Shown here piece after piece: positions 2,072 to 17,622 of a stretch of 20,477 nt of DNA (positions are counted from its first letter, which is position 1; each line of letters begins with the position of its first letter). The translations under genes and the position numbers were made by a program. Under the pieces are notes generated by a model. It was not told the origin of the DNA and made no database searches. It saw only the letters and a list, made by a program, of their open reading frames with translations. The DNA lies in the IMG/VR virus record IMGVR_UViG_2703718852_000002, positions 1-20,477 of that record. One strand, written 5' to 3'. The DNA comes from a virus (lineage: Duplodnaviria; Heunggongvirae; Uroviricota; Caudoviricetes).

Positions 2072-2143
2072 TATGGTGTTCACAAAATACAAACGATCCG
2101 TATTCGTCCTGATTAATCATCATTAAACGAGGAATGTTGCATC

Positions 2144-2365
2144 ATGAGACCTAACATTTCAATCACTCTTACCACGCCTCATGTGACTATTGAACGCTAT
2201 AGCGAGCTGACAGGGCTATCCATCGATACCATCAATGACATGTTGGCTGATGGACGCCTTATCCGTCACCGTCTGCGCAAAGATAAAAAACGCGAAAAAG
2301 TGATGATCAACATAGCAGCAATGACCGTTGATGCGCTTTCAGAATGCAATCTAAACCTTAATTAG
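2144..2365 (+). CDS. apl: Apl/Cox-type small HTH excisionase / switch regulator (73 aa)
   Basis: First gene of the rightward early operon, facing cI. The HTH-like segment [21 protein letters not shown] resembles the P2 Cox architecture. Confidence 0.7.
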
Positions 2366-2397
2366 TTCGATTCTGAAATACATCAGAGGCATTGACC

Positions 2398-2907
2398 ATG
2401 TTTGATTACCAAGTTTCCAAACATCCACATTTTGATGAAGCCTGTCGTGCATTTGCACTGCGCCACAATCTGGTGCAACTGGCAGAACGTGCAGGCATGA
2501 ATGTGCAGATTCTGCGGAACAAGCTGAACCCAGCTCAGCCTCATTTATTAACCGCACCAGAAATCTGGCTGCTTACCGATCTGACTGAAGATTCAACGCT
2601 GGTAGATGGTTTTCTGGCACAGATTCATTGTCTGCCATGTGTACCGATTAATGAGGTGGCAAAAGAGAAACTGCCACATTACGTCATGAGTGCAACCGCA
2701 GAGATCGGGCGTGTTGCTGCAGGTGCGGTGTCTGGCGATGTAAAAACCTGTGCCGGTCGTCGTGATGCTATCAGCAGCATTAACTCTGTAACACGACTGA
2801 TGGCGCTGGCGGCTGTTTCATTGCAGGCCCGTTTACAGGCTAATCCTGCGATGGCGAGTGCAGTTGATACCGTGACTGGCCTCGGTGCTTCATTTGGTTT
2901 GCTGTGA
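2398..2907 (+). CDS. cII: CII-like lysogeny-establishment activator, phage 186 type (169 aa)
   Basis: [24 protein letters not shown]...NKLNPAQPH...[25 protein letters not shown] closely matches my recollection of 186 CII, including the 169-aa length. AGAGG RBS before ATG 2398. Confidence 0.85.
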
Positions 2908-2914
2908 GGTGCTT

Positions 2915-3115
2915 ATGCTGACGAAAGAACCATCATTTGCATCGCTGCTGGTTAAACAAAGCCCGGCAATGCATTACGGTCACGGCTGGATCATGGGGGA
3001 GGATGGTAAACGCTGGCATCCGTGCCGTTCACAAGATGAATTGCTGGCAGAACTATCTACGAAAAAACGGGGGAACAAATGGCTATTGAAGGCACTGCGG
3101 CGACTGTTCCATTAA
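2915..3115 (+). CDS. Small early-operon protein of unknown function (66 aa)
   Basis: ATG 2915 is preceded by GAGGTG, immediately after the cII stop. This is the position of the small fil/dhr-type genes of 186, but the sequence is not recognised with confidence. Confidence 0.5.
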   Translation: MLTKEPSFASLLVKQSPAMHYGHGWIMGEDGKRWHPCRSQDELLAELSTKKRGNKWLLKALRRLFH

Positions 3116-3420
3116 GCCCCGGTGAACGCCTGAATGGACTTAATCACATTGCGGAGTTAAGGGCGAAAGTTTTTGGCCTGAATATTGAGTCAGAGCTTGA
3201 GCGGTTTATTAAAGATATGCGTGATTCACGGGATATTAATAGCGAACAAAATAAACGGGCACTGGCTGCCATATTCTTTATGGCAAAAATTCCAGCTGAA
3301 CGTCATAGCATCAGCATTAATGAGCTGACCACTGACGAAAAGCGGGAGTTGATTAAAGCAATGAATCATTTTCGTGCAGTGGTGAGCTTATTTCCCAGAC
3401 GGCTAACCATGCCGAATTAA
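3079..3420 (+). CDS. Early-operon hypothetical protein (113 aa)
   Basis: ATG 3079 is preceded by GGGGGAA. It overlaps the previous ORF by 37 nt in another frame. No recognisable motif. Confidence 0.5.
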   Translation: MAIEGTAATVPLSPGERLNGLNHIAELRAKVFGLNIESELERFIKDMRDSRDINSEQNKRALAAIFFMAKIPAERHSISINELTTDEKRELIKAMNHFRAVVSLFPRRLTMPN

Positions 3421-3487
3421 CCAACTAATGAAATTAATGGCGTAAACCCGCCGGGCATCCCTTTATCTAAATTCAGGAGAATTGATT

Positions 3488-3721
3488 ATGCGTAATATTG
3501 AAACCCTCTCGACCAAAACCGGACCGGATGACGCAGGGCTTAATATTTTACTGACAGAGGCTCGTCTGGAAGAACGCCGGGCAAGGGCTGAAGCAATGGC
3601 AGCTCGCCTTGATAGCCTGGCGTGTCATATCACATCCCGCCAGCTAACCCACGTCGAAGCGGCAGAACTGCTTCGTGTGACTGCTGAAGCAATCCAGAAC
3701 GAAGCGCAGGAGATCCACTAA
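3488..3721 (+). CDS. Small helical early protein, DUF2732-like (77 aa)
   Basis: AGGAG lies 8 nt before ATG 3488. Sequence MRNIETL...LLTEARLEERRARAEAMAARLDSLA resembles the DUF2732 family common in P2-like early operons (from memory). Its stop overlaps the next start (TAATG). Confidence 0.55.
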   Translation: MRNIETLSTKTGPDDAGLNILLTEARLEERRARAEAMAARLDSLACHITSRQLTHVEAAELLRVTAEAIQNEAQEIH

Positions 3722-3948
3722 TGGCTGATGCAATGGATCTCGTACAGCAGCGCGTTGAAGAAGAACGCCAACGCCATATCCGTGCTGCCCGTGCCAAAAC
3801 GCCGGGCGTGTCCCGCGTGCTTTGCATTGAGTGTGAAGCGCCAATTCCGCCAGCACGCCGCCGTGCCATTCCGGGTGTGCAGCTTTGCATTACCTGTCAG
3901 GAAATCGCAGAGCTGAAAGGCAAACATTACAACGGAGGTGCTGTATGA
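3721..3948 (+). CDS. TraR/DksA-family C4 zinc-finger protein (75 aa)
   Basis: CIECEAPIPPARRRAIPGVQLCITCQ gives CxxC...CxxC. Typical P2-like early gene. Translationally coupled on both sides. Confidence 0.8.
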   Translation: MADAMDLVQQRVEEERQRHIRAARAKTPGVSRVLCIECEAPIPPARRRAIPGVQLCITCQEIAELKGKHYNGGAV

Positions 3949-4802
3949 GCACCATCCTGAAATGGGCGGGAAATAAAACTGCCATAATGTCCGAACTGAA
4001 AAAACATCTTCCTGCTGGCCCGCGACTGGTTGAACCTTTCGCGGGTTCCTGTGCTGTGATGATGGAGACGGATTATCCCAGCTATCTGGTTGCGGATATT
4101 AATCCTGATTTAATCAACCTCTATAAAAAGGTTGCCGCTGATTGTGAATCGTTTATATCTCGCGCCAGAGTTTTATTTGAGATCGCAAACAGGGAAGTGG
4201 CTTATTACAACATAAGGCAGGAGTTTAATTACTCAACTGAAATTACTGATTTCATGAAAGCGGTATATTTCCTGTATCTCAATCGTCACGGTTACCGTGG
4301 TTTATGTCGCTATAACAAGAGCGGGCATTTCAACATTCCCTACGGTAATTATAAAAATCCGTATTTCCCTGAAAAAGAAATTCGCGCATTTGCAGAAAAG
4401 GCCCAGCGAGCAACGTTTATCTGCGCCAGCTTTGATGAAACGCTGGCGATGTTGAAGGCGGGGGATGTGGTGTATTGCGATCCGCCGTATGACGGTACGT
4501 TTTCCGGCTATCACACTGACGGCTTCACTGAAGATGACCAGTATCACCTGGCATCTGTTCTTGAACATCGGTCATCAGAAGGACATCCGGTCATTGTTTC
4601 TAACAGTGACACATCCCTGATCCGTTCGCTGTATCGCAATTTTACTCACCACTACATCAAGGCAAAACGCAGCATCGGTGTGGCAGCTGGCGAGGGTAAA
4701 TCAGCAACAGAAATCATTGCTGTTTCCGGGCCGCGCTGCTGGGTGGGATTTGATTATTCGCGTGGCGTGGATAGTTCTGCCGTGTACGGAGTACGTGCAT
4801 GA
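3945..4802 (+). CDS. dam: DNA adenine methyltransferase, Dam/D12 class (285 aa)
   Basis: [20 protein letters not shown] (SAM-binding FxGxG) and YCDPPY catalytic motif. GGAGG before ATG 3945; ATGA overlaps with both neighbours. The track start at 3885 is an upstream extension. Confidence 0.9.
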
Positions 4803-7213
4803 GTCATGCCGATATGAACAACTGCTGCGGCTTTAACGAAGCTGCCGCATCGTTCTCATGGAACAGCTCGAAAAAGGCCATTAACCCTTATCTGGACCCG
4901 GTGGAAGTTGCGCCGGTTTCTACGCTTTCAAACCTGATCACTCTGTACGCTGCCGATAACGAGCAGGAACAGCTGCGCCGTGAGGCGCTGAGTGATCAGG
5001 TCTGGGAGCGTTATTTCTTTAATGAATCCCGTGATCCTGTCCAGCGCGAAATGGAACAGGATAAGCTCATTAGTCGGGCAAAGCTGGCGCATGAGCAGCA
5101 GCGTTTTAATCCGGATATGGTCATTCTGGCGGACGTCAACGCCCAGCCTTCCCATATCAGCAAGCCGCTGATGCAACGTATTGAATACTTCAGCAGCCTG
5201 GGCAGGCCAAAGGCTTATTCCCGCTATTTACGTGAGACGATTAAGCCATGTCTGGAACGACTGGAGCATGTACGCGACAGTCAGCTATCTGCATCTTTTC
5301 GCTTTATGGCAAGCCATGAAGGGCTGGACGGCCTGCTGATCCTGCCTGAAATGAGTCAGTTTCAGGTGAAACGCCTGTCCACCCTGGTAGCTGCGCATAT
5401 GAGTATGTGCCTTGATGCCGCTTGTGGCGATTTGTATGCCACCGATGACGTTAAGCCAGAAGAAATCCGCAATACATGGGAAAGGGTGGCAGCGGAAACC
5501 CTGCGTCTGGATGTCATCCCGCCTGCGTTTGAGCAACTCCGTCGGAAAAGAAACCGCCGTAAACCCGTGCCCTATGAACTCATTCCGGGTTCGCTGGCGC
5601 GTATGTTGTGCGCCGACTGGTGGTATCGGAAATTATGGAAGATGCGTTGCGAATGGCGGGAAGAGCAGTTGCGTGCTGTCTGCCTTGTCAGCAAAAAAGC
5701 ATCTCCCTATGTCAGCTATGAAGCCGTGTTGCATAAACGTGAGCAGCGCCGTAAGTCGCTGGAGTTTTTCCGTTCTCATGAACTGGTGAACGAAGACGGC
5801 GACACGCTGGACATGGAGGATGTGGTAAACGCCAGCAGCAGCAACCCTGCGCATCGCCGCAATGAGATGATGGCCTGTGTTAAAGGTCTGGAGCTTATCG
5901 CGGAAATGCGCGGTGACTGCGCCGTTTTCTACACCATCACCTGTCCGTCACGTTTCCATTCCACGCTAAATAACGGCAGGCCCAACCCGACCTGGACAAA
6001 TGCGACGGTAAGACAAAGCAGCGATTATCTGGTCGGTATGTTTGCTGCATTTCGTAAGGCGATGCACAAAGCCGGGTTGCGCTGGTATGGCGTGCGGGTG
6101 GCTGAGCCGCATCACGACGGCACAGTTCACTGGCACCTGTTGTGTTTCATGCGCAAAAAAGACCGCCGCGCCATTACAGCATTGTTGCGTAAGTTTGCTA
6201 TCCGTGAAGACCGCGAGGAGCTGGGCAATAACACGGGGCCGCGCTTTAAGTCTGAGCTGATTAACCCGCGCAAAGGAACGCCGACAAGCTACATAGCGAA
6301 ATACATCAGTAAGAACATTGACGGGCGTGGTCTGGCTGGCGAGATCAGCAAGGAAACGGGTAAATCTCTGCGTGATAACGCTGAATACGTGAATGCCTGG
6401 GCGTCTTTGCATCGTGTTCAGCAATTCCGCTTCTTTGGCATTCCGGGGCGTCAGGCTTACCGTGAACTGCGATTGCTGGCTGGTCAGGCGGCAAGGCAAA
6501 AGGGGGACAAAAAAGCAGGTGCGCCGGTACTGGATAACCCGCGCCTTGATGCCATCCTGGCTGCTGCTGATGCTGGTTGTTTTGCCACCTACATCATGAA
6601 GCAGGGCGGCGTACTGGTTCCCCGTAAATATCACCTCATCAGAACCGCTTATGAAATCAACGAAGAGCCGACCGCCTATGGCGATCACGGCATTCGTATT
6701 TATGGCATCTGGTCACCCATTGCAGAGGGCAAGATCTGCACTCATGCAGTGAAGTGGAAAATGGTTCGTAAAGCCGTTGACGTTCAGGAGGCGGCAGCCG
6801 ACCAGGGCGCTTGCGCCCCTTGGACTCGTGGCAATAACTGTCCCCTTGCTGAAAATTTGAACCAACAGGAGAAAGATAAATCAGCTGATGGGGACCCCAG
6901 AACGGACATTACCAGCATGGATGACAAGGAGTTGCACGATTACCTGCACAGTATGAGCAAAAAAGAGCGCCGGGAACTGGCAGCAAGGTTACGCCTGGTG
7001 AAACCGAAACGGCGTAAAGACTACAAACAGCGAATTACAGACCATCAGCGACTGCAGCTCGTGTATGAGCTGAAGTCCAGAGGATTTGATGGCAGCGAGA
7101 AAGAGGTCGATTTACTCCTTCGCGGAGGCAGTATTCCGTCAGGAGCAGGCCTGCGTATCTTCTATCGGAACCAGCGTTTGCAGGAAGATGATCAGTGGCG
7201 GAACCTGTATTAA
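4799..7213 (+). CDS. A: Replication initiation endonuclease gpA (rolling-circle Rep, 804 aa)
   Basis: HUH-type motif [10 protein letters not shown] and the two-tyrosine motif [10 protein letters not shown] typical of P2/186 A and phiX174-type initiators. Size and position match P2-family gene A. Confidence 0.9.
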
Positions 7214-7305
7214 TTACGCGGGTTAACAATTCGTGCTCTTAATAATACCAGGCATATCAGGCTGATGAACGTAAAAAAACGTTTTACATCAGTAAGATTA
7301 TTATA

Positions 7306-7340
7306 TACTGTAAATATAAACAGTGGTTATACATACAGTA
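7306..7340. promoter_or_regulatory. Tandem LexA (SOS) boxes overlapping a promoter-like TTTACA-15-TATACT
   Basis: 7306-7325 TACTGTAAATATAAACAGTG has CTG-N10-CAG and matches the consensus TACTGTATATATATACAGTA at 17 of 20. A second overlapping box at 7321-7340 (reverse strand TACTGTATGTATAACCACTG) matches 15 of 20, with CAC replacing CAG. Confidence 0.65.
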
Positions 7341-7366
7341 TTGCGTGTGGTGTCATAGGAGGAAAG

Positions 7367-7555
7367 ATGCAGGACTATTTTTTGGAGTCTTTGAAGCTCC
7401 AGCGCATTGATTTTTTTCTTAAGCTTGTAGCGGCTAGTGAGTGTAGTGATGAAGAGAAGGGGCTGGCTCTGCAGTGGGTTTCTGAATTGACTGATGAACT
7501 CATGGCAAAAATCAGAACCCACGAATACAACCGCTCAATGGATGTCATCAGCTGA
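7367..7555 (+). CDS. Small SOS-controlled protein, candidate Tum-like antirepressor (62 aa)
   Basis: AGGAGGAAAG-ATG at 7367, directly downstream of the LexA boxes. Same map position as the LexA-controlled tum of 186. Function is inferred from context only. Confidence 0.45.
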   Translation: MQDYFLESLKLQRIDFFLKLVAASECSDEEKGLALQWVSELTDELMAKIRTHEYNRSMDVIS

Positions 7556-7565
7556 GGTGACTTTT

Positions 7566-7799
7566 ATGCGCATTGAAATAATGATCGATAAAGAGCAGAA
7601 GATTAGCCAGTCTACCCTGGACGCCCTTGAATCCGAGCTTTACCGCAATCTGCGCCCCCTGTATCCCAAAACGGTAATTCGCATTCGCAAAGGTAGCTCT
7701 AACGGTGTGGAACTAACCGGACTGCAACTGGACGAAGAAAGAAAACAAGTGATGAAAATTATGCAGAAGGTGTGGGAAGACGACAGCTGGCTGCATTAA
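7566..7799 (+). CDS. DinI-like protein (77 aa)
   Basis: MRIEIMIDKEQ...LDALESELYRNL...QKVWEDDSWLH parallels E. coli DinI (MRIEVTI...IDALAGELSRR...QETWESADDW). GAGGTG RBS. Confidence 0.8.
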   Translation: MRIEIMIDKEQKISQSTLDALESELYRNLRPLYPKTVIRIRKGSSNGVELTGLQLDEERKQVMKIMQKVWEDDSWLH

Positions 7800-7934
7800 G
7801 AAACGTTGCTGGCGTCTGAACTTGCTTCTGGCGTCAGCAAGGTTGAACAACGAGCCCTTGCGAGGCGTTAGCTCTGTAGTGCATGTCTATGCCGCATGAG
7901 ATCGCATGATCGTTTGAGGATCGTTTTTGCTAAG

Positions 7935-7958
7935 GCCCGCCAGAACTGGCGGGCTTTT
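7935..7958 (+). terminator. Rho-independent terminator ending the early/SOS transcription unit
   Basis: GCCCGCCAG-AA-CTGGCGGGC hairpin followed by TTTT. Confidence 0.6.
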
Positions 7959-8003
7959 GCGTAGATCATGCAGGTGCATGAAAACCACTACATAAAGCGG
8001 GCA

Positions 8004-8022
8004 GGCGTGGCGGGGATACGAG
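8004..8022. other. cos: cos-like cohesive-end sequence GGCGTGGCGGGGATACGAG
   Basis: The first 13 nt are identical to the 186 cohesive end as I recall it (GGCGTGGCGGGGAAAGCAT; P2 is GGCGAGGCGGGGAAAGCAC). It lies between the replication module and the portal gene, as in P2/186. Confidence 0.5.
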
Positions 8023-8196
8023 CGCGCGCTGATAGGGTAATCGTCAAAACAGGCATCAGCTAGGTTGAGTTGTAGCGGTGCTTAAGTTTGCTCGTTGTTT
8101 GATAGAGCTTAATGTATGTAATTGCCTACAGCTGTGGTTATCTATTAACATGTAAGGATAAGGTCACTTGCTCGCTGCCATTAGAAGAGGAACTGG

Positions 8197-8667
8197 ATGT
8201 CTATCGAGGAAAAATTTTTTAGTGATATCGATTTAAAAGATCCGTTTTTTAACAGCCTAAGAGCTGATTATGAAGGATTTGATGTTTGGTTTCTCTCAAA
8301 AGGTAAAAATAAGGCGTTTGTATCACGTAATGAATTAGGTGAAATCGATGGTTTTCTCTATTTGAAAATAGAAGATGAAGAGTTGAGTGATATGACTCCA
8401 ACGTTTCCAAAGATGAAGCGAGTAAAGCTTGGCACATTTAAAATCGATGCTCATGGAACCAAACTTGGAGAGCGTTTTATTAGAATTATGTTTCAATTTG
8501 CTATGAGAAACAAACTAAAAGAAGTATATGTTACTATATTTGATAAGCATTCAGGATTAATTCGCTTATTAACTAAATATGGTTTTGTTTTAAAGGCGAG
8601 GAAAAATCTTTCTACGATTAATGGGCAAGAAGGTGTATACTTTAAAAACTTGGTATGGAAGGAGTAA
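8197..8667 (+). CDS. Cargo gene 1: GNAT-fold acetyltransferase-like protein (156 aa)
   Basis: AGAGGA RBS. The C-terminal half, FKIDAHGTKLGERFIRIMFQFAMRNKLKEVYVTIFDKHSGLIRLLTKYGFVLKA, fits the GNAT beta4-alpha3 / ...YxKxGF pattern. The existence of the ORF is more certain than its function. AT-rich. Confidence 0.6.
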   Translation: MSIEEKFFSDIDLKDPFFNSLRADYEGFDVWFLSKGKNKAFVSRNELGEIDGFLYLKIEDEELSDMTPTFPKMKRVKLGTFKIDAHGTKLGERFIRIMFQFAMRNKLKEVYVTIFDKHSGLIRLLTKYGFVLKARKNLSTINGQEGVYFKNLVWKE

Positions 8668-8670
8668 AAA

Positions 8671-9252
8671 ATGAGCTATGCTAATTATCCCTTAGTCAAA
8701 TTGCAGGGGAGAAATTATTTATTAAGTATTTATCCTGCATGGCATACACGTCTTTTCCCTGAGTCAAAACTCCACAATGAGAGTGCTGGTATCATCGCTG
8801 ATATATCACATACCAACAGTATTGAAAAAGTATACTTAACAAAAATGCATGGGGTAGCCAGCCTAAAGCCTGGAGATAATTTGCTTATTTATCGTACTTC
8901 AGATGGACAAGGTCCAGCTCGGTTTAGATCTGTTGCAACTTCAGTGTGTGTGGTTCAGGAAATTAAAGATATTCACGATTTCTTAACTTATGAGGAATTT
9001 AAGAATTACTGTGAACCTTATAGCGTTTTTGATGAAGATGAGTTACAGCTTCTATATATGAAAAAAAATTATCCGATAATTATACGGTTTACTTATAATT
9101 TCCCTTTGGAAAAAAGAGTTATTCGTGATGAAATCATGAATATTACAGGTTATACCAATAGTGATTATTGGGGTTTTTTACCACTAACTGATTCAGCATT
9201 TAAGCAGATTGTCTTACAGGGAGGTGTTGATGAAAGTTTTATTATCGATTAA
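8671..9252 (+). CDS. Cargo gene 2: unknown 193-aa protein, possibly a divergent PUA-like/ASCH-type beta-barrel
   Basis: AAGGAG RBS, start 4 nt after the gene 1 stop. The core LKPGDNLLIYRTSDGQGPARFRSVATSVCVVQEIKD resembles the strand-turn-strand core of ASCH/EVE-type folds. No catalytic motif was recognised with confidence. Confidence 0.45.
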   Translation: MSYANYPLVKLQGRNYLLSIYPAWHTRLFPESKLHNESAGIIADISHTNSIEKVYLTKMHGVASLKPGDNLLIYRTSDGQGPARFRSVATSVCVVQEIKDIHDFLTYEEFKNYCEPYSVFDEDELQLLYMKKNYPIIIRFTYNFPLEKRVIRDEIMNITGYTNSDYWGFLPLTDSAFKQIVLQGGVDESFIID

Positions 9253-9601
9253 GCCAGAGTATGCAGAGAGTATACTTTCTGGTAAAAAAAAATATGAGTT
9301 TCGGAAAAATATTTTTAGAAATAAAAATGTTGATACGATAGTTATTTACGCAACGATGCCGGTTGGCAAAGTAATAGGTGAATTTAAAGTAGGAGATATT
9401 CTTGCTCTATCCCCTTCAGAATTGTGGGATAAAACGAAAGCTCATGCAGGAATTACACATTCTTTTTTTAAAGATTATTTCCACCAAAGAGAAAAGGCTT
9501 TTGCTATTTCCATCAAAAGCCCTAAAAGATATAAATTCCCTGTCGACTTAAATGAGTTGATTCCCGGCGGCGTCGCCCCACAGTCTTATCGTTATTTATA
9601 A
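9230..9601 (+). CDS. Cargo gene 3: ASCH-domain protein (123 aa)
   Basis: GGAGGTG RBS; ATG 9230 overlaps the end of gene 2 by 23 nt. MKVLLSIKPEYAESILSGKKKYEFRKNIFRNKNVDTIVIYATMPVGKVIGEFKVGDIL...AFAISIKSPKRYKFPVDL is the classic stand-alone ASCH (COG4933-type) pattern. Confidence 0.75.
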   Translation: MKVLLSIKPEYAESILSGKKKYEFRKNIFRNKNVDTIVIYATMPVGKVIGEFKVGDILALSPSELWDKTKAHAGITHSFFKDYFHQREKAFAISIKSPKRYKFPVDLNELIPGGVAPQSYRYL

Positions 9602-10141
9602 TGTTGTCTGGGCATGTTTCTTAACCATGCCCAGTTTTTCTAGGGCAATAGATAAATCGTTTGTTGTTGGGGATTCTAAGATAATTAATGGTACATTGAT
9701 TTTATTTGTAACATATTTTGCGTTTTCTCTTTCAGCTTCCATCAGCTTATTTAAATCATAAGTAATATCACTCCCATCTCGTTTCATTATTCGTTCTCTA
9801 ATTGTATCGGGAGACTCCTCAACTAAAATTACTCCATCTAGCCCCATTTCCTCAAATACTTCTTGCTTGAGAACTTCAATATCTCCATTTTTATTTATTA
9901 AGGTAAAATGACCATCCAATAAAATATTGGATACCTTTAACTTTAATGCATTAAGTGCCGTAAGTAATATTGATTGGTTTTTATCAGGTGTGGCCGTTAA
10001 CTTACTGTTATCAAATTTAATATTAGAATTATTTTTTATAAGTTCGCTTGCGCTTACATGAGTTACCCCGAAATCATCTTTTGCAAATGAACACAAGTAA
10101 CCTTTGCCTACACCATGAACACCTGCTATGAAAATTAACAT
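9596..10141 (-). CDS. Cargo gene 4: P-loop NMP/adenylate-kinase-like protein (181 aa)
   Basis: GGAGGT RBS. Walker A IAGVHGVGKGY (a GKG-type loop as in adenylate kinases) and LLDGHF (compare ILDGFP of Adk). Convergent with gene 3; the 3' ends overlap by 6 nt. Confidence 0.65.
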   Translation of the reverse strand: MLIFIAGVHGVGKGYLCSFAKDDFGVTHVSASELIKNNSNIKFDNSKLTATPDKNQSILLTALNALKLKVSNILLDGHFTLINKNGDIEVLKQEVFEEMGLDGVILVEESPDTIRERIMKRDGSDITYDLNKLMEAERENAKYVTNKINVPLIILESPTTNDLSIALEKLGMVKKHAQTTL

Positions 10142-10166
10142 AGTATTACCTCCGTTTATTTATTTA

Positions 10167-10175
10167 TGTTAGAAT
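10167..10175 (+). promoter_or_regulatory. Extended -10 promoter candidate (TGTTAGAAT) for the ASCH-2/AbiC-like operon
   Basis: TGn-TAGAAT at 10167-10175, with a weak -35 (TTACCT, 18-nt spacer). Predicted TSS ~10182, 25 nt before ATG 10207. Confidence 0.4.
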
Positions 10176-10189
10176 GTTATAGCCTTAGC

Positions 10190-10218
10190 ATAGTAGAGGA
10201 TAGAGCATGAAGTTTCAA
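10190..10218 (-). promoter_or_regulatory. Promoter candidate for the kinase-like gene: TTGAAA-17 nt-TACTAT (minus strand)
   Basis: -35 at 10218-10213 and -10 at 10195-10190 on the minus strand, exact 17-nt spacer. Predicted TSS ~10183, about 42 nt before ATG 10141. Confidence 0.45.
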
Positions 10219-10584
10219 GCTATATCGATTTTGACTCCAGCGGTAGAAAATATTATAAATGGTTCTAAATCTATCGAAATACGGTCGTGGTATCCTGAAA
10301 CGATACCATTAAAAAACGTCATTCTTGTTCAGAATGATAAATATCTTAAAAATCAAAGCGATATAGATCATGGGGTGGCTATGGCTATTGTCGATTTTGT
10401 TTCAGTTAGAAATTGGTCATATGAGGATTACTTAAAACAAAACCAAGAAACAACTCTTAATAAGCCTTGGTCTCCAGGTTATTATGTGTGGGAAATTAAA
10501 AATGTTAGAATTTTAAAAAAATCTATTCCTTGTGTGGCGAGGAAAGGTATTTATACAATAGATTTAAATATGGATTATATATAA
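10207..10584 (+). CDS. Cargo gene 5: ASCH-domain protein (125 aa)
   Basis: GAGGA RBS. MKFQAISILTPAVENIINGSKSIEIRSWYPETIPLKNVILVQ fits the common ASCH opening (AxSIxQPWAxxIxxGxKxIEIRSW...). Confidence 0.7.
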   Translation: MKFQAISILTPAVENIINGSKSIEIRSWYPETIPLKNVILVQNDKYLKNQSDIDHGVAMAIVDFVSVRNWSYEDYLKQNQETTLNKPWSPGYYVWEIKNVRILKKSIPCVARKGIYTIDLNMDYI

Positions 10585-10595
10585 GGTATTGTGAG

Positions 10596-11387
10596 ATGTG
10601 TGGTGCCATTCTTCGAAATATTAAGCGTTATGCCATTATTTATTCACTGTTGTTTTTGGCTTTTATTTTAATGCTGATAGTGTTTGTTAGCTATGTTTGT
10701 AAATTTGGAGTGTATTCATGGAGTGATTCCGTAGAGAAATGGGGACAGTTTGGCGATTATATTGGTGGTGTACTGAATCCTGCTCTGGCCTTTATCTCTA
10801 TCATGCTTGTTTGTTTCACACTATATTCTACATCTAGGCAGTCATCTATTCAGTCATTCGAGTCTGTGTTATTTGAGTTACTAAGATTTCATAAAGATAA
10901 CTTATCAGAAATTAAAACAACGTATTCAGATGGAAAAGTGTATGTAGGACGGGAGGCTCTTTCATTATACATTACCGAAGTGAAGTTTAACCTACTTAAT
11001 ATTGTGGATGATTCACTTCCTTTGGATGAAAGGTTAGAGCTTTCAGTTAATATGGTTTATCTGGAAGGTGACAATTTTGCGAATGTGGGACATTATTTCA
11101 GGAATATTTACCATATTTTTAAACATATCAATGACTCTAACTATTTGACTGAGAAAGAAAAAACCAAGTATGCGAAATTAGTTAGAGCACAAATATCTTC
11201 TATAGAATCTGGCGCGATGCTATTAAATGGTTTTTCATCGGTAGGAAAGCCTGCCAAGAAATTTATTGAAAAATATTCTCTCCTTCAGGGGTTTAGTTTA
11301 AGTAAGGAATTCAAGCAGCAATTACATGATTTAGGTGCCTTAAAATTATACGATGACGTTGCTTATGAGGATAAAAAAGGGCATTAA
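10596..11387 (+). CDS. Cargo gene 6: two-TM membrane protein, AbiC-like putative abortive-infection effector (263 aa)
   Basis: Starts 11 nt after gene 5. Two N-terminal hydrophobic helices (AIIYSLLFLAFILMLIVFVSYV and VLNPALAFISIMLVCFTLY) flank WGQFGDYIGGVLNP, the signature I associate with the Pfam 'putative phage abortive infection protein' (putAbiC) family. The C-terminal region is soluble and helical. Confidence 0.6.
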   Translation: MCGAILRNIKRYAIIYSLLFLAFILMLIVFVSYVCKFGVYSWSDSVEKWGQFGDYIGGVLNPALAFISIMLVCFTLYSTSRQSSIQSFESVLFELLRFHKDNLSEIKTTYSDGKVYVGREALSLYITEVKFNLLNIVDDSLPLDERLELSVNMVYLEGDNFANVGHYFRNIYHIFKHINDSNYLTEKEKTKYAKLVRAQISSIESGAMLLNGFSSVGKPAKKFIEKYSLLQGFSLSKEFKQQLHDLGALKLYDDVAYEDKKGH

Positions 11388-11394
11388 ATGCCCT
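11378..11394. terminator. Bidirectional hairpin AGGGCAT-TAA-ATGCCCT at the cargo/portal boundary
   Basis: Perfect 7-bp stem. On the minus strand it is followed by TTTTTTA, so it serves as a Q terminator. The stop codons of gene 6 (11385-11387) and Q (11384-11386, minus strand) both sit in or beside the loop. Confidence 0.55.
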
Positions 11395-12220
11395 TATCTT
11401 GGTCAAGGATGTAGTCATTAAATGACACAATATTTTGATTTATCCAGGTGTTTAGCTCAACTAGTCTTTTCTGCAAAGGAACCAACTCATTTCTGACAAA
11501 AACCTTCGCGGCTTTTTCCACATCCCCAAACCCTCCAACATTATTAGGCATAATCCCCATCATTTGCGGCGGCACGCGGTGCGCAGCCATCATGTCATCA
11601 CGGCTCACGTTCTTGATATTCAGAAACTCATCCTTCGCCGCAACTTCTGACAATGGGATAATCTGAAGCCCGTCCTTTTTGCCGTTAGGCGAGTACATAA
11701 ACAGGTTGCGGAAGTTGCCCGGACCTTTGGCGCTTTTCATCGCATTGCGGAGGTTGTTCACATCTTCCTGGTTCTGCGCGGCATCGGTCATGTACATGAT
11801 GAAGCCTGCATGACTGCCGTTAATGTAATACTTCCGGCGGAACAGCGTGGCGGACTCGTTGAGCAGGGCTGACGGAATGGCAGAAAGATAACCTGGCAGG
11901 CCGTAGATCTCCTGGTTGATGTCCGGTTCCATCAGATGAAAAATGCTGCCTTTCGTGAACTGATACGGCTGGGTTGTCATACCGTATTGCACAAACCAGT
12001 AGGTATCCAGGTCTAACCCGCGTCGGGTATATTTTGCCAGAGCAGGCTCAAGGGCGATAACTTCACCGAAGCGGTTCGTGCGTTTCTCCAGGTAGGCGTT
12101 ACCAAATACCAGATAGTCCTGCACAAAACGTGAAAAAGCCTGCTGGCTGAGCAGCGGGTGAGGGATGTAGGTACTGGTCAGAATGTTGCATTTTACTGCA
12201 ATCGGTGACCGGAAGCAGAG
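11384..12220 (-). pseudogene. Q: Portal protein gpQ, 5'-truncated (C-terminal ~275 codons retained)
   Basis: SPIAVKCNILTSTYIPHPLLSQQAFSRF...LNESATLFRRKYYINGSHAGFIMY...VFVRNELVPLQ matches P2 gpQ from about residue 70 onward. Upstream of ~12210 the minus-strand frame reads antisense to the J remnant (track ORF to 12337). Confidence 0.85.
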
Positions 12221-12439
12221 CCGGTAATGGCAGCGGCAAAAGCCAGTCTGCAGAAGTACATTGCCAGCCAGACGAGGCTTGGTCGGGATATTCGCCGTAG
12301 CGCCATCTTTGCTGCTCTGCATGTTGAGGGTGTTCAACGTGTGGAACTGGCTTCTCCGCTGGCGGATGTGGTCCTGAACAAAACACAGGCGGCATCATGT
12401 ACGCAGTGGAGCGTAACCAACGGAGGAACGGATGAATAG
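12209..12439 (+). pseudogene. J: Baseplate protein gpJ, 3' remnant (~75 codons)
   Basis: ...RLGRDIRRSAIFAALHVEGVQRVELASPLADVVL...GGTDE is a P2 gpJ C-terminus. An in-frame stop at 12206-12208 lies just upstream. The remnant is immediately followed by, and overlaps, gene I as in P2. Confidence 0.75.
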
Positions 12440-13037
12440 TCTGCTGCCACCGGGTTCAACTTCACTGGAGCGCCGACTGGCGCAAACCTGTAGCGGGATT
12501 TCTGATTTGCAGGTGCCGCTGCGTGACTTGTGGAATCCGGCTACCTGTCCGGTCAGCTTCCTGCCTTATCTCGCCTGGGCGTTCTCTGTGGATCGCTGGG
12601 ACGAGGGCTGGACAGAAAGCGTCAAACGCCAGGTAGTGAAGGATGCTTTTTATATTCATCAGCATAAAGGAACCACCAGTGCCGTGCGGCGGGTGGTGGA
12701 ACCGTTCGGATTCCTGATCCGCATTATTGAGTGGTGGCAGACCGGAGAAACACCGGGCACGTTTCGCCTGGATATCGGCGTGCAGGACCAGGGCATCACT
12801 GAAGATACCTATCTGGAACTTGAGCGACTGATAAGCGATGCCAAACCATGTAGCCGCCACATGATCGGCATGTCCATCAATCTGCAGACCAGCGGCCCGC
12901 ATTGGGTGGGAGCCGCCAGCTATCTTGGCGAAGAAATCACGATCTATCCGTATATCAACGAAACGATTATTTCCGGTGGCACCGCGCATGAAGGCGGGGC
13001 GGTCCATGTTATTGACACAATGAGAGTGAATCCATGA
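12432..13037 (+). CDS. I: Baseplate/tail protein gpI (201 aa)
   Basis: GGAGGA RBS. MNSLLPPGSTSLERRLAQ...FLPYLAWAFSVDRWDEGW is typical of P2 gpI. Coupled to H (ATGA). Confidence 0.85.
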   Translation: MNSLLPPGSTSLERRLAQTCSGISDLQVPLRDLWNPATCPVSFLPYLAWAFSVDRWDEGWTESVKRQVVKDAFYIHQHKGTTSAVRRVVEPFGFLIRIIEWWQTGETPGTFRLDIGVQDQGITEDTYLELERLISDAKPCSRHMIGMSINLQTSGPHWVGAASYLGEEITIYPYINETIISGGTAHEGGAVHVIDTMRVNP

Positions 13038-14977
13038 GCACAAAATTTTATACCCTGCTGACGGATATTGGCGCGGCGAAACTTGCCAGCGCCGCCGCGC
13101 TCGGTGTGCCGCTAAAAATTACCCATATGGCGGTGGGCGATGGCGGTGGAGTATTGCCAACGCCGGACGCAAAGCAGACGGCACTGGTAAATGAGAAACG
13201 CCGGGCTGCGCTGAATATGCTTTATATCGACCCGCAGAACAGCAGCCAGATTATTGCCGAACAGGTGATCCCTGAAAACGAGGGCGGTTGGTGGATACGT
13301 GAAGTGGGCTTGTTTGATGAGTCCGGGGCATTGATTGCCGTGGGCAACTGCCCGGAAAGCTATAAGCCGCAACTGGCTGAAGGTAGCGGGCGCACTCAGA
13401 CCGTGCGCATGGTGCTGATTACCAGCAGCACGGACAATATCACCCTGAAAATCGACCCTGCTGTAGTGCTGGCAACCCGCAAGTATGTGGATGACAAGGC
13501 ACTGGAGCTGAAGGTGTACGCGGATGATCAGATGGCAAAACATCTTGCCGCACCGGACCCGCATTCACAGTACGCGCCAAAAGCCAGCCCGACATTTACC
13601 GGAACCCCCAAAGCGCCAACGCCAGCGGCGGGGAATAATACCACGCAGGTTGCGACCACTGCGTTTGTACAGGCGGCACTGACGGCCCTTATTAATGGTG
13701 CGCCAGCCACGCTGGACACGCTGAAAGAAATAGCCGCAGCCATTAACAATGATCCGAATTTCAGTACCACCATTAACAATGCGCTGGCACTAAAAGCACC
13801 GTTGTCGAGTCCGGCACTCACCGGAACGCCAACAGCCCCCACGGCGGCGCAGTCGGTCAACAATACACAGATTGCCACTACGGCTTTTGTGAAATCGGCG
13901 ATTGCAGGAATGGTGGGTTCTGCACCTGCTGCACTGGATACACTGAACGAACTGGCGGCGGCACTGGGGAATGATCCGAACTTTGCCACGACAATGCTTA
14001 ATGCGCTGGCAGGTAAACAACCGCTGGACAATACGCTTACCAATTTGAGTGGAAAGGATGTGGCTGGTCTTCTCGCATACCTTCAATTGGGAGAAGCGGC
14101 AAAACGGGATGTCGGAACCGGTAATAATCAACTCCCGGACATGTCCGCATTTGGTATGTCGCGAAACGGACAAACTGCCTGGGATATTCTCCCAAATGGT
14201 ATGATTCGACAGGCTGGCACTGTGACACTGACACCAGTTGGTAACTTCAACGAAATTGTTCTTGGTGGAGTGACGTACTACACCCATTACTACAGGGTTA
14301 ATTTCCCCAGACAATTCCCAAATGCACAAATAGCAACGCTGGCAACACTAGCGAGCTCAGAGTTTTCGAAACAGACAACAATGGCCGGAAAATCACTGGC
14401 AACGCATCGCGATACTGATTCTGGCACTGACGTATCAAGAACGCGATTCACTGTGGCGTACGGCAGCAGTAACTCGAACCAGCAGCGCGTTGTCCTGGCT
14501 GGCTGGCGCACCACTGGCACTGCTGCGACGCGGGCTTGCTTCATCGGGCAACGCCGCAGGTTTACTTACTGCGCCGTTGTCGTCTTTGCGCCGCACGGCA
14601 TCACTGACGGGAAATGTCCTGAAAACTGTAGCAGGTGCGCCGGTTGCACTTTTGCGGTCTGGATTATCCGGTTTACGTGCTGTTGCTGTGATGTTTATGA
14701 ATCCTCTGGCGGTACTGCGCGGTGGACTGGCCGCCGCAGGCACGGTGCTGCGAGTACTGGCATCTGGTCCACTGGCGATGCTGCGCGTTGCCCTGTATGC
14801 CATATCTGGTCTGTTAGGTGCTCTGCTCAGTCCGATAGGTCTTGTGGTTACTGCACTGGCGGGCGTGGCGCTGGTTGTCTGGAAATACTGGCAACCCATC
14901 ACCGCATTTCTCGGTGGCGTGGTGGAAGGATTCAAAGCGGCGGCAGGTCCCATCAGTGCAGCGTTCGAACCGCTTAA
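13034..14977 (+). pseudogene. H: Tail fibre gpH, 3'-truncated and fused out of frame into the tape-measure gene
   Basis: P2 H-like N-terminus MSTKFYTLLTDIGAAKLASAAALGVPLKITHMAVGDGGG. Fibre-like sequence runs to ~14488 (...TVAYGSSNSNQQ). After that the frame gives a Cys/Arg/Gly-rich nonsense tail across T DNA until the stop at 14977. Confidence 0.8.
13631..14025 (+). repeat. Tandem ~75-aa repeat inside the tail fibre
   Basis: NNTTQVATTAFVQAALTALINGAPATLDTLKEIAAAINNDPNFSTTINNALALKAP is repeated as VNNTQIATTAFVKSAIAGMVGSAPAALDTLNELAAALGNDPNFATTMLNALAGKQP. This is a common phage fibre repeat. Confidence 0.8.
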
Positions 14978-15734
14978 GCCCGTGTTCCAGTGGATTGGCG
15001 ACAAAGTGCAGGCGCTGTGGGGCTGGTTTACTGATCTGCTGACGCCCGTTAAGTCGACCTCTGCCGAACTGCAGAGCGCAGCGGCAATGGGGCGGCGATT
15101 CGGGGAGGCACTGGCGGAAGGGCTGAATATGGTCATGCATCCGCTGGACTCCCTGAAATCCGGCGTTTCCTGGTTGCTGGAGAAGCTCGGCATTGTCAGT
15201 AAAGAGGCCGCAAAGGCAAAACTGCCGGAAAGCGTGACGCGTCAGCAACCTGCGACGGTGAATGCAGACGGTAAAGTGATGATGCCATCGGGTGGTTTTC
15301 CATCATGGGGATATGGCTTTGCGGGGATGTATGACAGCGGCGGGTATATCCCGCGCGGGCAGTTTGGCATCGTCGGTGAAAACGGGCCGGAAATTGTTAA
15401 CGGCCCGGCAAATGTGACCAGCCGGAGAAATACAGCTGCACTGGCTGCCGTTGTTGCCGGAATGATGGGCGTTGCTGCCGCGCCAGCAGAGCTTCCACCG
15501 TTGCACCCTTTGGCACTTCCCGCGAAAGGTGGAGAAGCAATTGTGAGTCGCGCAGCCACTGTGCCGCTCGTTCAACGGATTGAGGCACCGACGCAGATCA
15601 TCATTCAGACGCAGCCAGGACAAAGTGCGCAGGATATTGCGCGGGAGGTGGCACGCCAGCTTGATGAACGTGAACGCAGGCTGAAGGCAAAAGCCAGGAG
15701 TAACTACAGCGATCAGGGGGGATACGACGCATGA
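14490..15734 (+). pseudogene. T: Tape-measure protein gpT, 5'-truncated (C-terminal ~414 codons)
   Basis: Ala/Gly/Leu-rich periodic PLALLRRGL / PVALLRSGL / PLAVLRGGL units, then ...GGYIPRGQFGIVGENGPEIV..., typical of P2 gpT. There is no credible start (TTG only). Followed by U with an ATGA overlap. Confidence 0.8.
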
Positions 15735-16216
15735 TGATGGTGCTGGGATTGTACGTGTTTATGCTGCGCACCGTTCCGTATCAGGAACTGCAGTATCAAC
15801 GCAGCTGGCGACATGCGGCAAACAGTCGGGTAAACCGACGTCCGTCCACGCAGTTTCTGGGACCGGAAAACGACATGCTGACGCTTTCCGGTGTTCTTAT
15901 GCCGGAAATAACAGGCGGCAGGCTGTCGTTGCTGGCACTGGAGCAGATGGCAGAACAGGGGAAAGCATGGCCCCTGATTGAAGGCAGCGGCACGATTTAC
16001 GGCATGTATGTGATTGAGGGACTGAATCAGACTAAAACGGAGTTTTTCCGCGACGGTATGCCGCGCCGGATTGAGTTCACCCTGTCGCTCAAACGAGTGG
16101 ATGAATCCCTGTCCGATATGTTCGGTGATCTCAGTGCGCAACTGAATAATCTGCAGGACACGGCAACGTCTGCCTTAAGCGATATCAGTAAAACGGTGGG
16201 AGGGCTGCTGTCGTGA
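15731..16216 (+). CDS. U: Tail protein gpU (161 aa)
   Basis: MMMVLGLYVFMLRTVPYQELQYQRSWRHAANSRV...GKAWPLIEGSGTIYGMYVIE closely parallels P2 gpU. Confidence 0.9.
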   Translation: MMMVLGLYVFMLRTVPYQELQYQRSWRHAANSRVNRRPSTQFLGPENDMLTLSGVLMPEITGGRLSLLALEQMAEQGKAWPLIEGSGTIYGMYVIEGLNQTKTEFFRDGMPRRIEFTLSLKRVDESLSDMFGDLSAQLNNLQDTATSALSDISKTVGGLLS

Positions 16217-17313
16217 ATTTCAGCTCTGAACTGCTTAACAAAGGCAACAAAACTCCCGCATTCAGCATCAGTATTGAGGGCAGGGATATCACCACTGTGC
16301 TGGATAACCGCCTGATGAGTTTGACGCTGACGGATAACCGGGGCTTTGAAGCGGACCAGCTTGATCTGGAGCTGGATGACGCTGACGGAAAAATCGTGCT
16401 GCCGCGCCGTGGTGCGGTTATTACGCTGGCGCTGGGCTGGAAGGGGCAGCCGCTTTTCCCGAAAGGGGCATTCACAGTGGACGAGATTGAACACACTGGC
16501 GCACCGGACCGCCTGACTATCCGGGCGCGAAGTGCTGATTTTCGGGAAACGCTGAATACCCGCCGTGAAAAATCGTGGCATAAGACCACCGTCGGGGAAG
16601 TGGTGAAGGAAATAGCCGCGCGGCACAAGCTGAAGATGGCACTGGGTAAAGACCTGTCGGATAAGCCCGTGGAGCATATAGACCAGACTAATGAGAGTGA
16701 CGGCAGTTTTCTGATGCGGCTGGCGCGACAGTACGGTGCCATCGCGTCGGTGAAAAATGGCAATCTGTTATTCATCCGGCAGGGGCAGGGCAAAAGCGCC
16801 ACTGGTAAACCTCTGCCAGTGATCACTATCACACGCAAGGACGGCGACAGTCACCGATTTACCCTGGCAGATCGCGGAGCCTACACGGGCGTAATTGCCA
16901 GCTGGTTGCATACCCGCGAACCTGCGAAGAAAGAAAGCACCACGGTGAAGCGTAAGCGCAGAACTAAGAAGCAGAAGAAAGAGCCAGAAGCGAAGCAGGG
17001 CGATTACCTGGTGGGTACGGATGAAAACGTGCTGGTACTTAATCGCACTTATGCCAACCGGAGCAACGCCGAACGAGCGGCGAAAATGCAGTGGGAACGC
17101 CTGCAACGCGGCGTTGCGTCATTTTCGCTACAACTGGCAGAAGGGCGGGCAGATCTCTACACGGAAATGCCTGTGAAGGTCAGTGGTTTTAAACAGCCGA
17201 TAGATGATGCGGAATGGACCATTACGACTCTGACACATACTGTCAGCCCGGATAATGGTTTTACGACCAGTCTGGAGCTTGAAGTGAGGATTGATGATTT
17301 CGAAATGGAATGA
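16213..17313 (+). CDS. D: Tail/late-control protein gpD (366 aa)
   Basis: ...LTLTDNRGFEADQLDLELDDADG...RARSADFRETLNTRREKSWH...VKVSGFKQPIDDAEWTITTLTH parallels P2 gpD. GTG start overlaps the U stop. Confidence 0.9.
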   Translation: MNFSSELLNKGNKTPAFSISIEGRDITTVLDNRLMSLTLTDNRGFEADQLDLELDDADGKIVLPRRGAVITLALGWKGQPLFPKGAFTVDEIEHTGAPDRLTIRARSADFRETLNTRREKSWHKTTVGEVVKEIAARHKLKMALGKDLSDKPVEHIDQTNESDGSFLMRLARQYGAIASVKNGNLLFIRQGQGKSATGKPLPVITITRKDGDSHRFTLADRGAYTGVIASWLHTREPAKKESTTVKRKRRTKKQKKEPEAKQGDYLVGTDENVLVLNRTYANRSNAERAAKMQWERLQRGVASFSLQLAEGRADLYTEMPVKVSGFKQPIDDAEWTITTLTHTVSPDNGFTTSLELEVRIDDFEME

Positions 17314-17338
17314 TTCTTCGCAATGGAGAACTTTTAAG

Positions 17339-17366
17339 TTTGCAAAATGGAATAATGCGGTATCAT
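17339..17366 (+). promoter_or_regulatory. ogr promoter candidate TTTGCA-16 nt-TATCAT
   Basis: Hexamers at 17339-17344 and 17361-17366, about 40 nt upstream of the ogr ATG. Confidence 0.4.
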
Positions 17367-17403
17367 TATTGTGAATTTAGCAAAAATGGGGAGAGCTCGA
17401 AAA

Positions 17404-17622
17404 ATGATGATTTGCCCACTGTGTGGAAGTGCCGCCCATACTCGCAGCAGTTTTCAGGTATCTTCATTGACCAAAGAGCGTTACAACCAGTGCCAGAACA
17501 TTAACTGCAGCCATACTTTTGTTACCCATGAAACTTTTGTTCGTTCGATTGCAACGCCAAAAGAGTCAAATCCGGTTCAGCCGCATCCAATGAAATCAGG
17601 ACAGGTGGCGCTCTCTCTTTGA
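17404..17622 (+). CDS. ogr: Ogr/B-type zinc-finger late-gene activator (72 aa)
   Basis: MMICPLCGSAAHTRSS...KERYNQCQNINCSHTF matches the Ogr/Delta/186-B CxxC...CxxxxC pattern and the 72-aa length. The track ORF start at 17371 is an extension. Confidence 0.9.
   Translation: MMICPLCGSAAHTRSSFQVSSLTKERYNQCQNINCSHTFVTHETFVRSIATPKESNPVQPHPMKSGQVALSL

Follow-up and report, generated by a model that had tools for sequence, protein, structure and literature searches.

We analysed a 20,477-nucleotide stretch of tailed-phage DNA (IMG/VR record IMGVR_UViG_2703718852_000002, positions 1 to 20,477; hereafter the window), which holds a P2/186-like Escherichia prophage, and focused on an AT-rich island of six open reading frames (ORFs), o1 to o6, at positions 8197-11387. 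A first-pass annotation made from the letters alone had described these ORFs as GNAT-like, unknown, ASCH, adenylate-kinase-like, ASCH and AbiC-like with two membrane segments, and had recognised no named defence system among them. Its domain calls were all correct, and the "unknown" ORF, o2, proved to be the PUA-like/EVE half of the acetyltransferase. The island does, however, match catalogued systems. The PADLOC check that the annotation had proposed returned the candidate defence system PDC-M11 for o1+o2 and for o3 (E = 1e-58, 6e-69 and 2e-49), with the kinase, the second ASCH protein and the AbiC-like protein falling outside that definition; a related operon was described in 2020, and homologues carry the labels GevT and GevA in GenBank. 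The count of six ORFs stands, but o1 and o2 correspond to a single gene in most relatives, and because they are two halves of one protein, the locus comprises five protein families in six ORFs.

The first two ORFs, both on the forward strand, together encode GevT (PDC-M11A): o1 (8197-8667, 156 amino acids) is its N-terminal half, a GNAT acetyltransferase domain, and o2 (8671-9252, 193 amino acids) its C-terminal half, a PUA-like beta-barrel of the EVE/ASCH class and a putative reader. The 357-position PADLOC model of PDC-M11A (PDLC04419) is matched end to end, but across two ORFs, with o1 covering positions 11-160 (E = 1e-58) and o2 positions 166-357 (E = 6e-69). In PHROGs, the fused form has a family (phrog_6345) beside those of the split form (phrog_13728 and phrog_30943). 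Pfam and NCBIfam gave nothing useful for either ORF, and their identity was drawn from PADLOC, PHROGs and structure. A search with the joined o1+o2 sequence recovered approximately 1500 protein clusters from many phyla, nearly all of 349-351 amino acids, indicating that the fused form is the norm. The AlphaFold model of a fused homologue (66% identical; predicted local distance difference test score 87) consists of two domains; the o2-type domain is predicted to fold as a PUA-like barrel and, among solved structures, comes closest to ZmASCH, not to a canonical EVE domain. At the sequence level, o2 is clearly homologous to residues 213-347 of Bacillus cereus PFQ07231.1, an entry of the EVE-domain set of Bell et al., and the GNAT half has kept its loop for cofactor binding as well as the YGF tyrosine. 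We also considered the o2 barrel as a paralogue of GevA and rejected this at the sequence level (hhalign probability 3%; a profile search of PDB sequences was empty); judging from the models, the two proteins appear alike in fold only.

The division of GevT lies at the linker between its two domains. The TAA stop codon of o1 (8665-8667) is followed by an ATG at 8671, giving a junction composed of a ribosome-binding site, a stop codon and an ATG. The position of the split between the domains is shared by Kosakonia, Pantoea, Providencia, Erwinia, an unclassified Enterobacteriaceae isolate and the present Escherichia window, and the split copies from the six enterobacterial genera are 61-79% identical to that of the window. 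The stop codon in these copies is TAA or TGA and the spacing varies, with GGAG preceding the restart ATG, while the fused forms of other lineages read straight through this position. Between the window and a Klebsiella copy, the ratio of non-synonymous to synonymous substitution rates (dN/dS) was 0.066 for o1 and 0.024 for o2. A recent nonsense mutation or ongoing decay is ruled out by the conservation across six genera, the differing stop codons, the internal ribosome-binding site and the low dN/dS. The split is an evolved gene fission in which neither domain has been lost.

The third ORF, o3 (9230-9601, forward strand, 123 amino acids from the ATG start used in RefSeq), encodes GevA (PDC-M11B), an ASCH protein. 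Its start overlaps the end of o2 by 23 nucleotides, and an alternative TTG start at 9209 lacks a ribosome-binding site. It matches PADLOC PDC-M11B (PDLC04425, E = 2e-49) and Pfam ASCH (E = 6e-9), and its closest solved relative is ZmASCH (PDB 5GUQ/5GUS, E = 6e-12). In the octapeptide region, SGKKKYEFR (GxKxxExR), K20, E23 and R25 are invariant in the family and G18 is nearly so. The second ASCH protein, o5 (10207-10584, forward strand, 125 amino acids), owes its assignment to a structure model, in which it appears closest to EOLA1; its octapeptide region reads NGSKSIEIR, and the K, E and R are invariant in the o5 family. When the o5 and o3 families were compared by hhalign, the N-terminal octapeptide region alone was aligned, with 18% probability. 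The island ASCH proteins share the predicted ASCH beta-barrel fold, and in all contexts examined o5 lies within this enterobacterial cassette. ZmASCH, the crystallised Zymomonas protein described as a ribonuclease, is both a close homologue of GevA/o3 and the best structural match for the GevT reader domain; it may itself partner a GNAT-EVE protein in Z. mobilis, which would alter the reading of its published activities.

The fourth ORF, o4 (9596-10141, reverse strand, 181 amino acids), is convergent with o3 and divergent from o5, and encodes an AAA_17 P-loop kinase-like protein (Pfam AAA_17, E = 3e-18). Its nearest solved sequences are adenylate kinase 1 (AK1) and UMP/CMP kinase (E = 4e-6 to 7e-5, residues 2-132), and all NCBIfam kinase models scored far below their cut-offs. 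The P-loop, GVHGVGKG, is of the GxxGxGKG type and belongs to a family signature of GxHGxGK, SAS, NQ, LDGHF and R..RD. In nucleoside-monophosphate (NMP) kinases, the canonical arginines of the NMP-binding site are those of the DGFPR motif. The o4 family is without this motif and has an invariant LDGHF together with SAS.LI in place of DGFPR. As far as can be judged from its sequence, the fold of o4 is kinase-like. Among near-identical Salmonella-type copies of the cassette (L090, L092 and L093), the kinase is in many reduced to fragments of 63-163 amino acids with the other five genes intact, and in E. coli LD91-1 (L002) and L092 a frameshift affects o2, the reader gene, instead. Components that decay in some hosts may carry a cost.

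The last ORF, o6 (10596-11387, forward strand, 263 amino acids from the RefSeq start), encodes a membrane protein with a putAbiC domain (Pfam PF16872, E = 1e-18; 68 bits, with the cut-off at 22) and two membrane segments predicted from hydropathy at residues ~12-36 and ~55-78. This arrangement, a putAbiC domain behind two N-terminal membrane helices, is the usual architecture of AbiC/putAbiC proteins. Matches to the PADLOC models were weak both for AbiC, the Lactococcus-type model by which defence genes are annotated (E = 1e-5, over 75 residues only), and for AbiP (E = 3e-4). The dN/dS of o6 was 0.068.

A connection between o6, o4 and the GevTA core emerged from fused relatives. In a Muribaculaceae locus (L071), the gene that follows GevA encodes a single 451-amino-acid protein that is AbiC-like towards its N-terminus and an o4-type kinase towards its C-terminus. 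We therefore searched o6 against 1.84 billion cluster representatives, and 4 of the 10 longest close relatives, each representing a separate 50%-identity cluster, were putAbiC+AAA_17 fusions bearing the signature motifs of o4. All five fusions, L071 and these four, lie directly downstream of a GevT-like/GevA-like pair. Five independent fusions that all share this operon setting are strong evidence that the AbiC-like protein and the kinase work with each other and with GevTA, as parts of one system. In one metagenomic contig (L101/L102, 848-5290), genes for GmrSD and a C5 DNA methylase stand directly upstream of such a GevT-GevA-AbiC::kinase operon. GmrSD is a type IV restriction enzyme that acts on modified DNA, and the arrangement fits a link of the system to modified-cytosine biology.

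To place the island among its relatives, we surveyed the GNAT-EVE/ASCH pair, which is widespread (~1500 protein clusters in many phyla; 216 confirmed loci in GTDB species-representative genomes); the locus counts that follow refer to 80 species-representative loci. In 77 of the 80 loci the GevT-like gene is directly followed by the ASCH gene, the two overlapping by about 20 nucleotides; in L040 a kinase gene separates them, which brings the total with an ASCH companion to 78. A homologue of o4 adjoins the GevT/GevA pair in 15 loci and lies 1.7 kb downstream in another; its placement varies, being upstream, downstream, on the opposite strand or, in L040, between the core genes. A lambdoid prophage of Klebsiella carries all six genes with order and orientation unchanged, flanked by the O/P-DUF977 genes on one side and the DinI/nin genes on the other, and the amino-acid identities for o1 to o6 are 90, 95, 93, 71, 80 and 83%. 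The same arrangement is found in P2-like prophages of Enterobacter, Providencia, Erwinia and Kosakonia (~70, 73, 73, 45, 52 and 57%), and one still more distant six-gene copy exists. Across all six genes, dN/dS between the window and the Klebsiella copy ranged from 0.02 to 0.27, indicating purifying selection. The six genes form one block that co-diverges in fixed order on two unrelated backbones, those of P2-like and lambdoid prophages, in moron and defence positions. The collection of sequenced phages contained no phage with the split six-gene form, only fused GevTA-type pairs with at most 54% identity. Beside a number of GevTA loci (L039, at 5915-7656, and also L062, L064, L068, L074 and L076; hosts Pseudomonas, Paraburkholderia, Methylophilus, Raoultella and Brenneria) we observed a second recurrent gene pair, which encodes a protein of ~390-440 amino acids with no Pfam match and one of 165-245 amino acids with a weak GNAT match and a GevT-like N-terminus; this pair may be a related, unnamed system.

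These observations lead us to regard the island as an extended subtype of a single system whose accessory parts are losable. The strongest competing explanation, which we regard as possible though clearly less probable, is that two or three independent modules are co-inherited solely through sharing one exchangeable slot: GevTA (o1-o3), a stand-alone AbiC-type protein (o6) and a kinase/ASCH pair with a role of its own (o4 and o5). Several findings weigh against a single system and in favour of this alternative. The extra genes are not obligatory, since the core pair is found without a kinase or AbiC-like gene, and is evidently sufficient, in about 60 of the 80 loci. The putAbiC family is large and mostly stand-alone (5873 clusters, most of them of 240-340 amino acids), and one close relative of o6 lies beside caspase-like peptidases with no GevTA gene. 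In addition, o4 is encoded on the opposite strand, its gene is truncated in many Salmonella copies in which the other five genes are intact, dN/dS is higher for o4 and o5 (0.17-0.27) than for the core (0.02-0.07), indicating faster evolution, and defence genes commonly stack in hotspots. What independent modules do not readily explain is that five separate AbiC::kinase fusion lineages each stand immediately after a GevT/GevA pair, that the kinase adjoins the pair in 15 of the 80 loci, in distant species and once between both core genes, and that the six-gene order is kept from 95% down to ~45% identity on two phage backbones.

The position of the island bears on what this extended system does. 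Its guanine-plus-cytosine (G+C) content is 33.2%, compared with 53.3% for gene A (4799-7213) and 53.8% for positions 11388-14000; in sliding windows it stays at 0.30-0.36 across ~8100-11400 with flanks at 0.50-0.58, and each of the six ORFs lies between 31 and 34%. The description of the block as foreign and AT-rich in the first-pass annotation is borne out by these values. The left edge is marked by a cohesive-end (cos)-like site at 8004-8022, GGCGTGGCGGGGATACGAG, which agrees with the annotated 19-nucleotide cos of phage 186, GGCGTGGCGGGGAAAGCAT, throughout its first 13 positions and at 15 of the 19 overall; the cos pattern occurs once in the whole window, against 0.03 occurrences expected by chance. 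Other P2-like prophages have only positions 8000-8038 of the window in common at this border. On the right, the stop codon of o6 overlaps that of the portal gene (11384-11387). In phage 186 the distance from cos to the portal stop codon is just 176 bp, and because of this the ~3.2 kb between cos and portal in the window represent inserted cargo. The P2 defence hotspot is the cos-proximal interval between gpA and gpQ, for which 1,650 gene arrangements have been counted and which contains old and tin of P2 (Rousset et al. 2022). The island is variable cargo of this kind, lying between gene A and the portal gene Q beside cos, so that its placement by the earlier annotation in the exchangeable cos-to-portal gap is upheld. 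In the RefSeq annotation of identical copies, the block has the gene A-DinI region on one side and the portal gene on the other, in intact P2/186-like prophages inserted near rcdA. Of 5426 complete E. coli genomes, 8 carry the island, at 99.7-99.9% identity and within intact prophages.

Signals for expression and mobility were also examined. Of the six ORFs credited earlier with good ribosome-binding sites, o1 to o5 have strong Shine-Dalgarno sequences (GAGGA, GGAG or GGAGG, 5-9 nucleotides before the start), but that of o6 is weaker (AAGGT). A terminator-like scan, which is a pattern match only, identified a G+C-rich hairpin, AAGGGCATTAAATGCCCTT, at 11377-11395 over the converging stops of o6 and the portal gene; its other matches were unremarkable. 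A sigma-70 promoter scan was uninformative (7 sites, against 15.5 in shuffled sequence). The repeat search detected no flanking direct repeats, attachment (att)-like sites or arrays, and nothing in the sequence suggests a mobility mechanism of the cassette's own.

The core of the island has already been catalogued three times: as PADLOC PDC-M11, as the GNAT-EVE/ASCH/AAA_17 operon of 2020, and under the GenBank labels GevT and GevA. PDC-M11 is a candidate defence system, for which the sole literature match was a genome survey listing "phage defense candidate systems". As in PADLOC's definition, the genes corresponding to A (o1+o2) and B (o3) are adjacent with the usual overlap of ~20 nucleotides; in the island, by contrast, the A protein is divided between two genes. 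The operon described by Bell, Wolf and Koonin (2020; PMC7641849) has a GNAT-EVE fusion gene accompanied almost always by an ASCH gene and often by an AAA_17 ATPase gene; its PIN-less form is stated to be common in beta- and gammaproteobacterial prophages, with no member experimentally characterised, and an earlier study (Iyer et al. 2013) is cited as a precursor of the description. The island shares with the operon, as set out there, the N-terminal GNAT, the C-terminal PUA-like domain, the ASCH gene and the AAA_17 gene, and differs in having GNAT and EVE on separate polypeptides. The AbiC-like partner, its fusion with AAA_17 and the second ASCH gene are not mentioned in the passages of that paper describing the operon. 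The same passages treat GNAT-EVE as a predicted toxin-antitoxin system and the ASCH protein as a probable DNA-binding regulator; the octapeptide retained in o3 and o5 suggests an enzyme rather than such a regulator.

The GenBank labels come from Escherichia phage PhiR47_2 (PV340567.1), in which homologues are annotated as GevT toxin and GevA antitoxin. This GevT is 44% identical to o1+o2 over its full length and this GevA 54% identical to o3, and the two genes form the same overlapping pair. PhiR47_2 differs in being lambdoid, in having a fused GevT of 357 amino acids and in lacking the kinase, the second ASCH and the AbiC-like gene. Its GevTA pair lies directly after cI, in the rexAB slot, a prophage moron position. 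For the P2 hotspot itself, term searches of Rousset et al. (2022) and of a 2026 P2/P4 hotspot paper yielded no instance of GNAT, acetyltransferase or AbiC, and in the 2026 paper none of ASCH or PDC either. We found no earlier description of the GevT fission, of the AbiC-kinase link and its recurrent fusion downstream of GevTA, of the second, EOLA1-like ASCH protein, or of a six-gene block moving between P2-like and lambdoid prophages.

Comparison with other defence and toxin families helps to delimit the system. PADLOC matched none of the six proteins to a restriction-modification, retron, CBASS, TIR/SIR2, helicase or nuclease system. Stand-alone AbiC differs from the o6 type, which is linked with an AAA_17 kinase and a GevT/GevA pair both in the island and in at least five lineages of fusions. 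The acetyltransferase toxins TacT, AtaT, ItaT and KacT are single-domain GNAT proteins of ~175 amino acids that are neutralised by the binding of ribbon-helix-helix antitoxins. GevT shares the GNAT fold with them, and acetylation of aminoacyl-tRNA, raised as an activity by Bell et al. as well, is also a candidate here; unlike these toxins, GevT has a reader domain and an ASCH partner and no ribbon-helix-helix antitoxin. No sequence-level match of the island proteins to TacT, AtaT, ItaT or KacT was obtained in PADLOC, Pfam or NCBIfam. DarTG is a validated anti-phage toxin-antitoxin system in which a transferase modifies nucleic acid and an adjacent hydrolase reverses the modification. Any likeness to DarTG would be by analogy, in the proposed logic of a writer toxin, an eraser antitoxin and an abortive outcome; the group transferred is ADP-ribose in DarTG and would be acetyl here, and the folds are unrelated.

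Taking these lines together, we consider it on balance probable that the island is a single mobile, prophage-carried GevTA/PDC-M11 cassette in an extended form, which excludes superinfecting phages abortively in a toxin-antitoxin-like manner. That the exclusion would proceed by such a toxin-antitoxin-like abortive mechanism is something we infer. Expression from the lysogen for exclusion is suggested by context: the cassette family occupies the old/tin hotspot (in this prophage and in SopEPhi, which carries GevTA-type genes in the same P2 hotspot) and the rexAB slot (in PhiR47_2), and some loci have defence neighbours. These neighbours, at some chromosomal loci, comprise type I and type III restriction-modification systems, Kiwa, GmrSD with a C5 methylase, and other PADLOC candidates.

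For the chemistry of this cassette, recent work on ASCH proteins offers a starting point. According to a 2026 preprint, 19 of 19 ASCH proteins tested, ZmASCH and EOLA1 included, strip N4-acetylcytidine (ac4C) from tRNA in vitro, and the octapeptide Lys and Glu, both invariant in the o3 and o5 families, are essential for its removal. Members of this group of ASCH ac4C amidohydrolases include YqfB, TthASCH, EOLA1, TRIP4 and ZmASCH. E. coli YqfB had earlier been identified as an ac4C amidohydrolase, and another 2026 preprint places EOLA1 in nucleotide salvage, deacetylating free ac4C. In the mechanism that we propose, the GNAT half of GevT would move acetyl from acetyl-CoA onto a nucleic-acid target picked by the reader half. 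The likeliest target would be the exocyclic N4 amine of cytosine, possibly modified, in tRNA, RNA or DNA, and the amino group of aminoacyl-tRNA would be an alternative. The two ASCH proteins would act as erasers that remove the acetyl mark and keep the cell alive. Infection might supply substrate, or remove or outcompete the erasers, and so tip the balance towards acetylation, whereupon translation or replication would stop. The kinase and the AbiC-like membrane protein may form an effector or regulatory arm, or a gate, at the membrane. In its most specific form, in which all six ORFs constitute one immune system of reversible base acetylation, on cytosine or a phage-type modified cytosine, with a split writer/reader, ASCH erasers active in healthy cells and a kinase/AbiC-like arm that carries out or gates shutdown, we hold this scheme to be unlikely as a whole, though worth stating.

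A number of points weigh against abortive exclusion by acetylation. The acetylation target is entirely inferred. In vitro, ZmASCH acts on tRNA but shows no activity towards the free nucleoside, the drop in tRNA ac4C that it caused in vivo was not significant, and it has also been reported as a single-stranded RNA ribonuclease; because of the in vivo result and the ribonuclease report, GevA could be an effector or regulator instead of an eraser. Literature searches for PDC-M11, GevT/GevA and GNAT+ASCH defence returned no experimental paper and none behind the names in PV340567.1. In a census of 125 genes flanking the pair, Pfam matches were mostly to housekeeping genes and PADLOC matches to scattered defence genes. 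The census supports a small, self-contained, toxin-antitoxin-like mobile module, and guilt by association is not strong.

It is also conceivable, though in our view rather improbable, that the cassette serves the phage itself, either by stabilising the prophage as an addiction module or, in counter-defence or takeover, by acetylating nucleic acids of the host or protecting the DNA of the phage. Bell et al. speculated that GNAT-EVE shields phages from host restriction, and the cassette family is carried by functional temperate phages (SopEPhi, PhiR47_2, 4A7 and Lj965), persists here although about half of the prophage genome is gone, behaviour expected of an addictive toxin-antitoxin module, and bears the toxin and antitoxin labels given by the depositor of PV340567.1. 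Exclusion from the lysogen is better in keeping with the occurrence of the pair at non-phage chromosomal sites beside restriction-modification, Kiwa and GmrSD genes and, in phages, with its place in moron slots expressed by the lysogen, namely the rexAB position and the old/tin hotspot, which are typical of exclusion genes; moreover, addiction and defence can coexist. A metabolic moron with no immune role, in which ASCH amidohydrolases and an NMP-kinase-like enzyme recycle ac4C, is very improbable: the nearest structural relative of o5 is EOLA1, assigned to salvage of free ac4C, and among solved proteins o4 is nearest to adenylate and UMP/CMP kinases, yet such a role leaves unexplained the invariable GNAT-reader partner, the membrane AbiC-like protein, the phage-hotspot position and the loss of the NMP site in o4 (DGHF for DGFPR), and E. 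coli already has YqfB for ac4C catabolism.

If reversible base acetylation by the cassette were true, it would be an acetyl-based counterpart of DarTG and the first natural pairing of an ac4C-type writer with an ASCH eraser in one operon; confirmation would establish base acetylation as a new immune chemistry and give a bacterial context to ac4C writers and erasers. ASCH proteins, identified as ac4C erasers in the 2026 report, are here hard-wired to an acetyltransferase, which makes the chemical hypothesis directly testable. The split GevT is a natural dissection of the catalytic from the reader domain and eases the study of each, and the genetic link between the kinase and the AbiC-like protein would give the poorly understood putAbiC family its first functional partner.

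The prophage around the island has undergone substantial loss. With the intact prophage of E. coli MLI104K1 as reference, positions 1-12208, 12189-14145 and 14459-20477 of the window align to three separated blocks, and ~10.4 kb and ~6.7 kb are missing between them. The two deletions proposed by the first-pass annotation are thus real, but its argument that the island survived them under selection is thin, being a single case in which the whole early region survived; selection is better supported by the dN/dS of 0.02-0.27 of all six genes. At the first junction the two aligned blocks overlap by 20 nucleotides (12189-12208), which suggests microhomology, and at the second, 313 nucleotides (14146-14458) have no alignment to the MLI104K1 prophage and a 647-amino-acid ORF (13034-14977) spans the junction. 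The portal ORF (11384-12337) is shortened, with 317 amino acids from a TTG start compared with 347 in intact prophages. Two further slots vary among these prophages: between the integrase gene and cI, the window has a small AT-rich ORF (1001-2000 region) where LD91-1 has a KAP P-loop nucleoside triphosphatase (NTPase) gene, and between the tail-completion gene and baseplate gene V, MLI104K1 encodes a DUF6216 protein and LD91-1 a 610-amino-acid P-loop NTPase. In P2-like prophages of Enterobacter hormaechei (L083-L086, 1998-3362), the AbiC-like and portal genes are separated by an additional gene, for a 454-amino-acid protein that has no significant match in Pfam; it is further cargo of the same hotspot.

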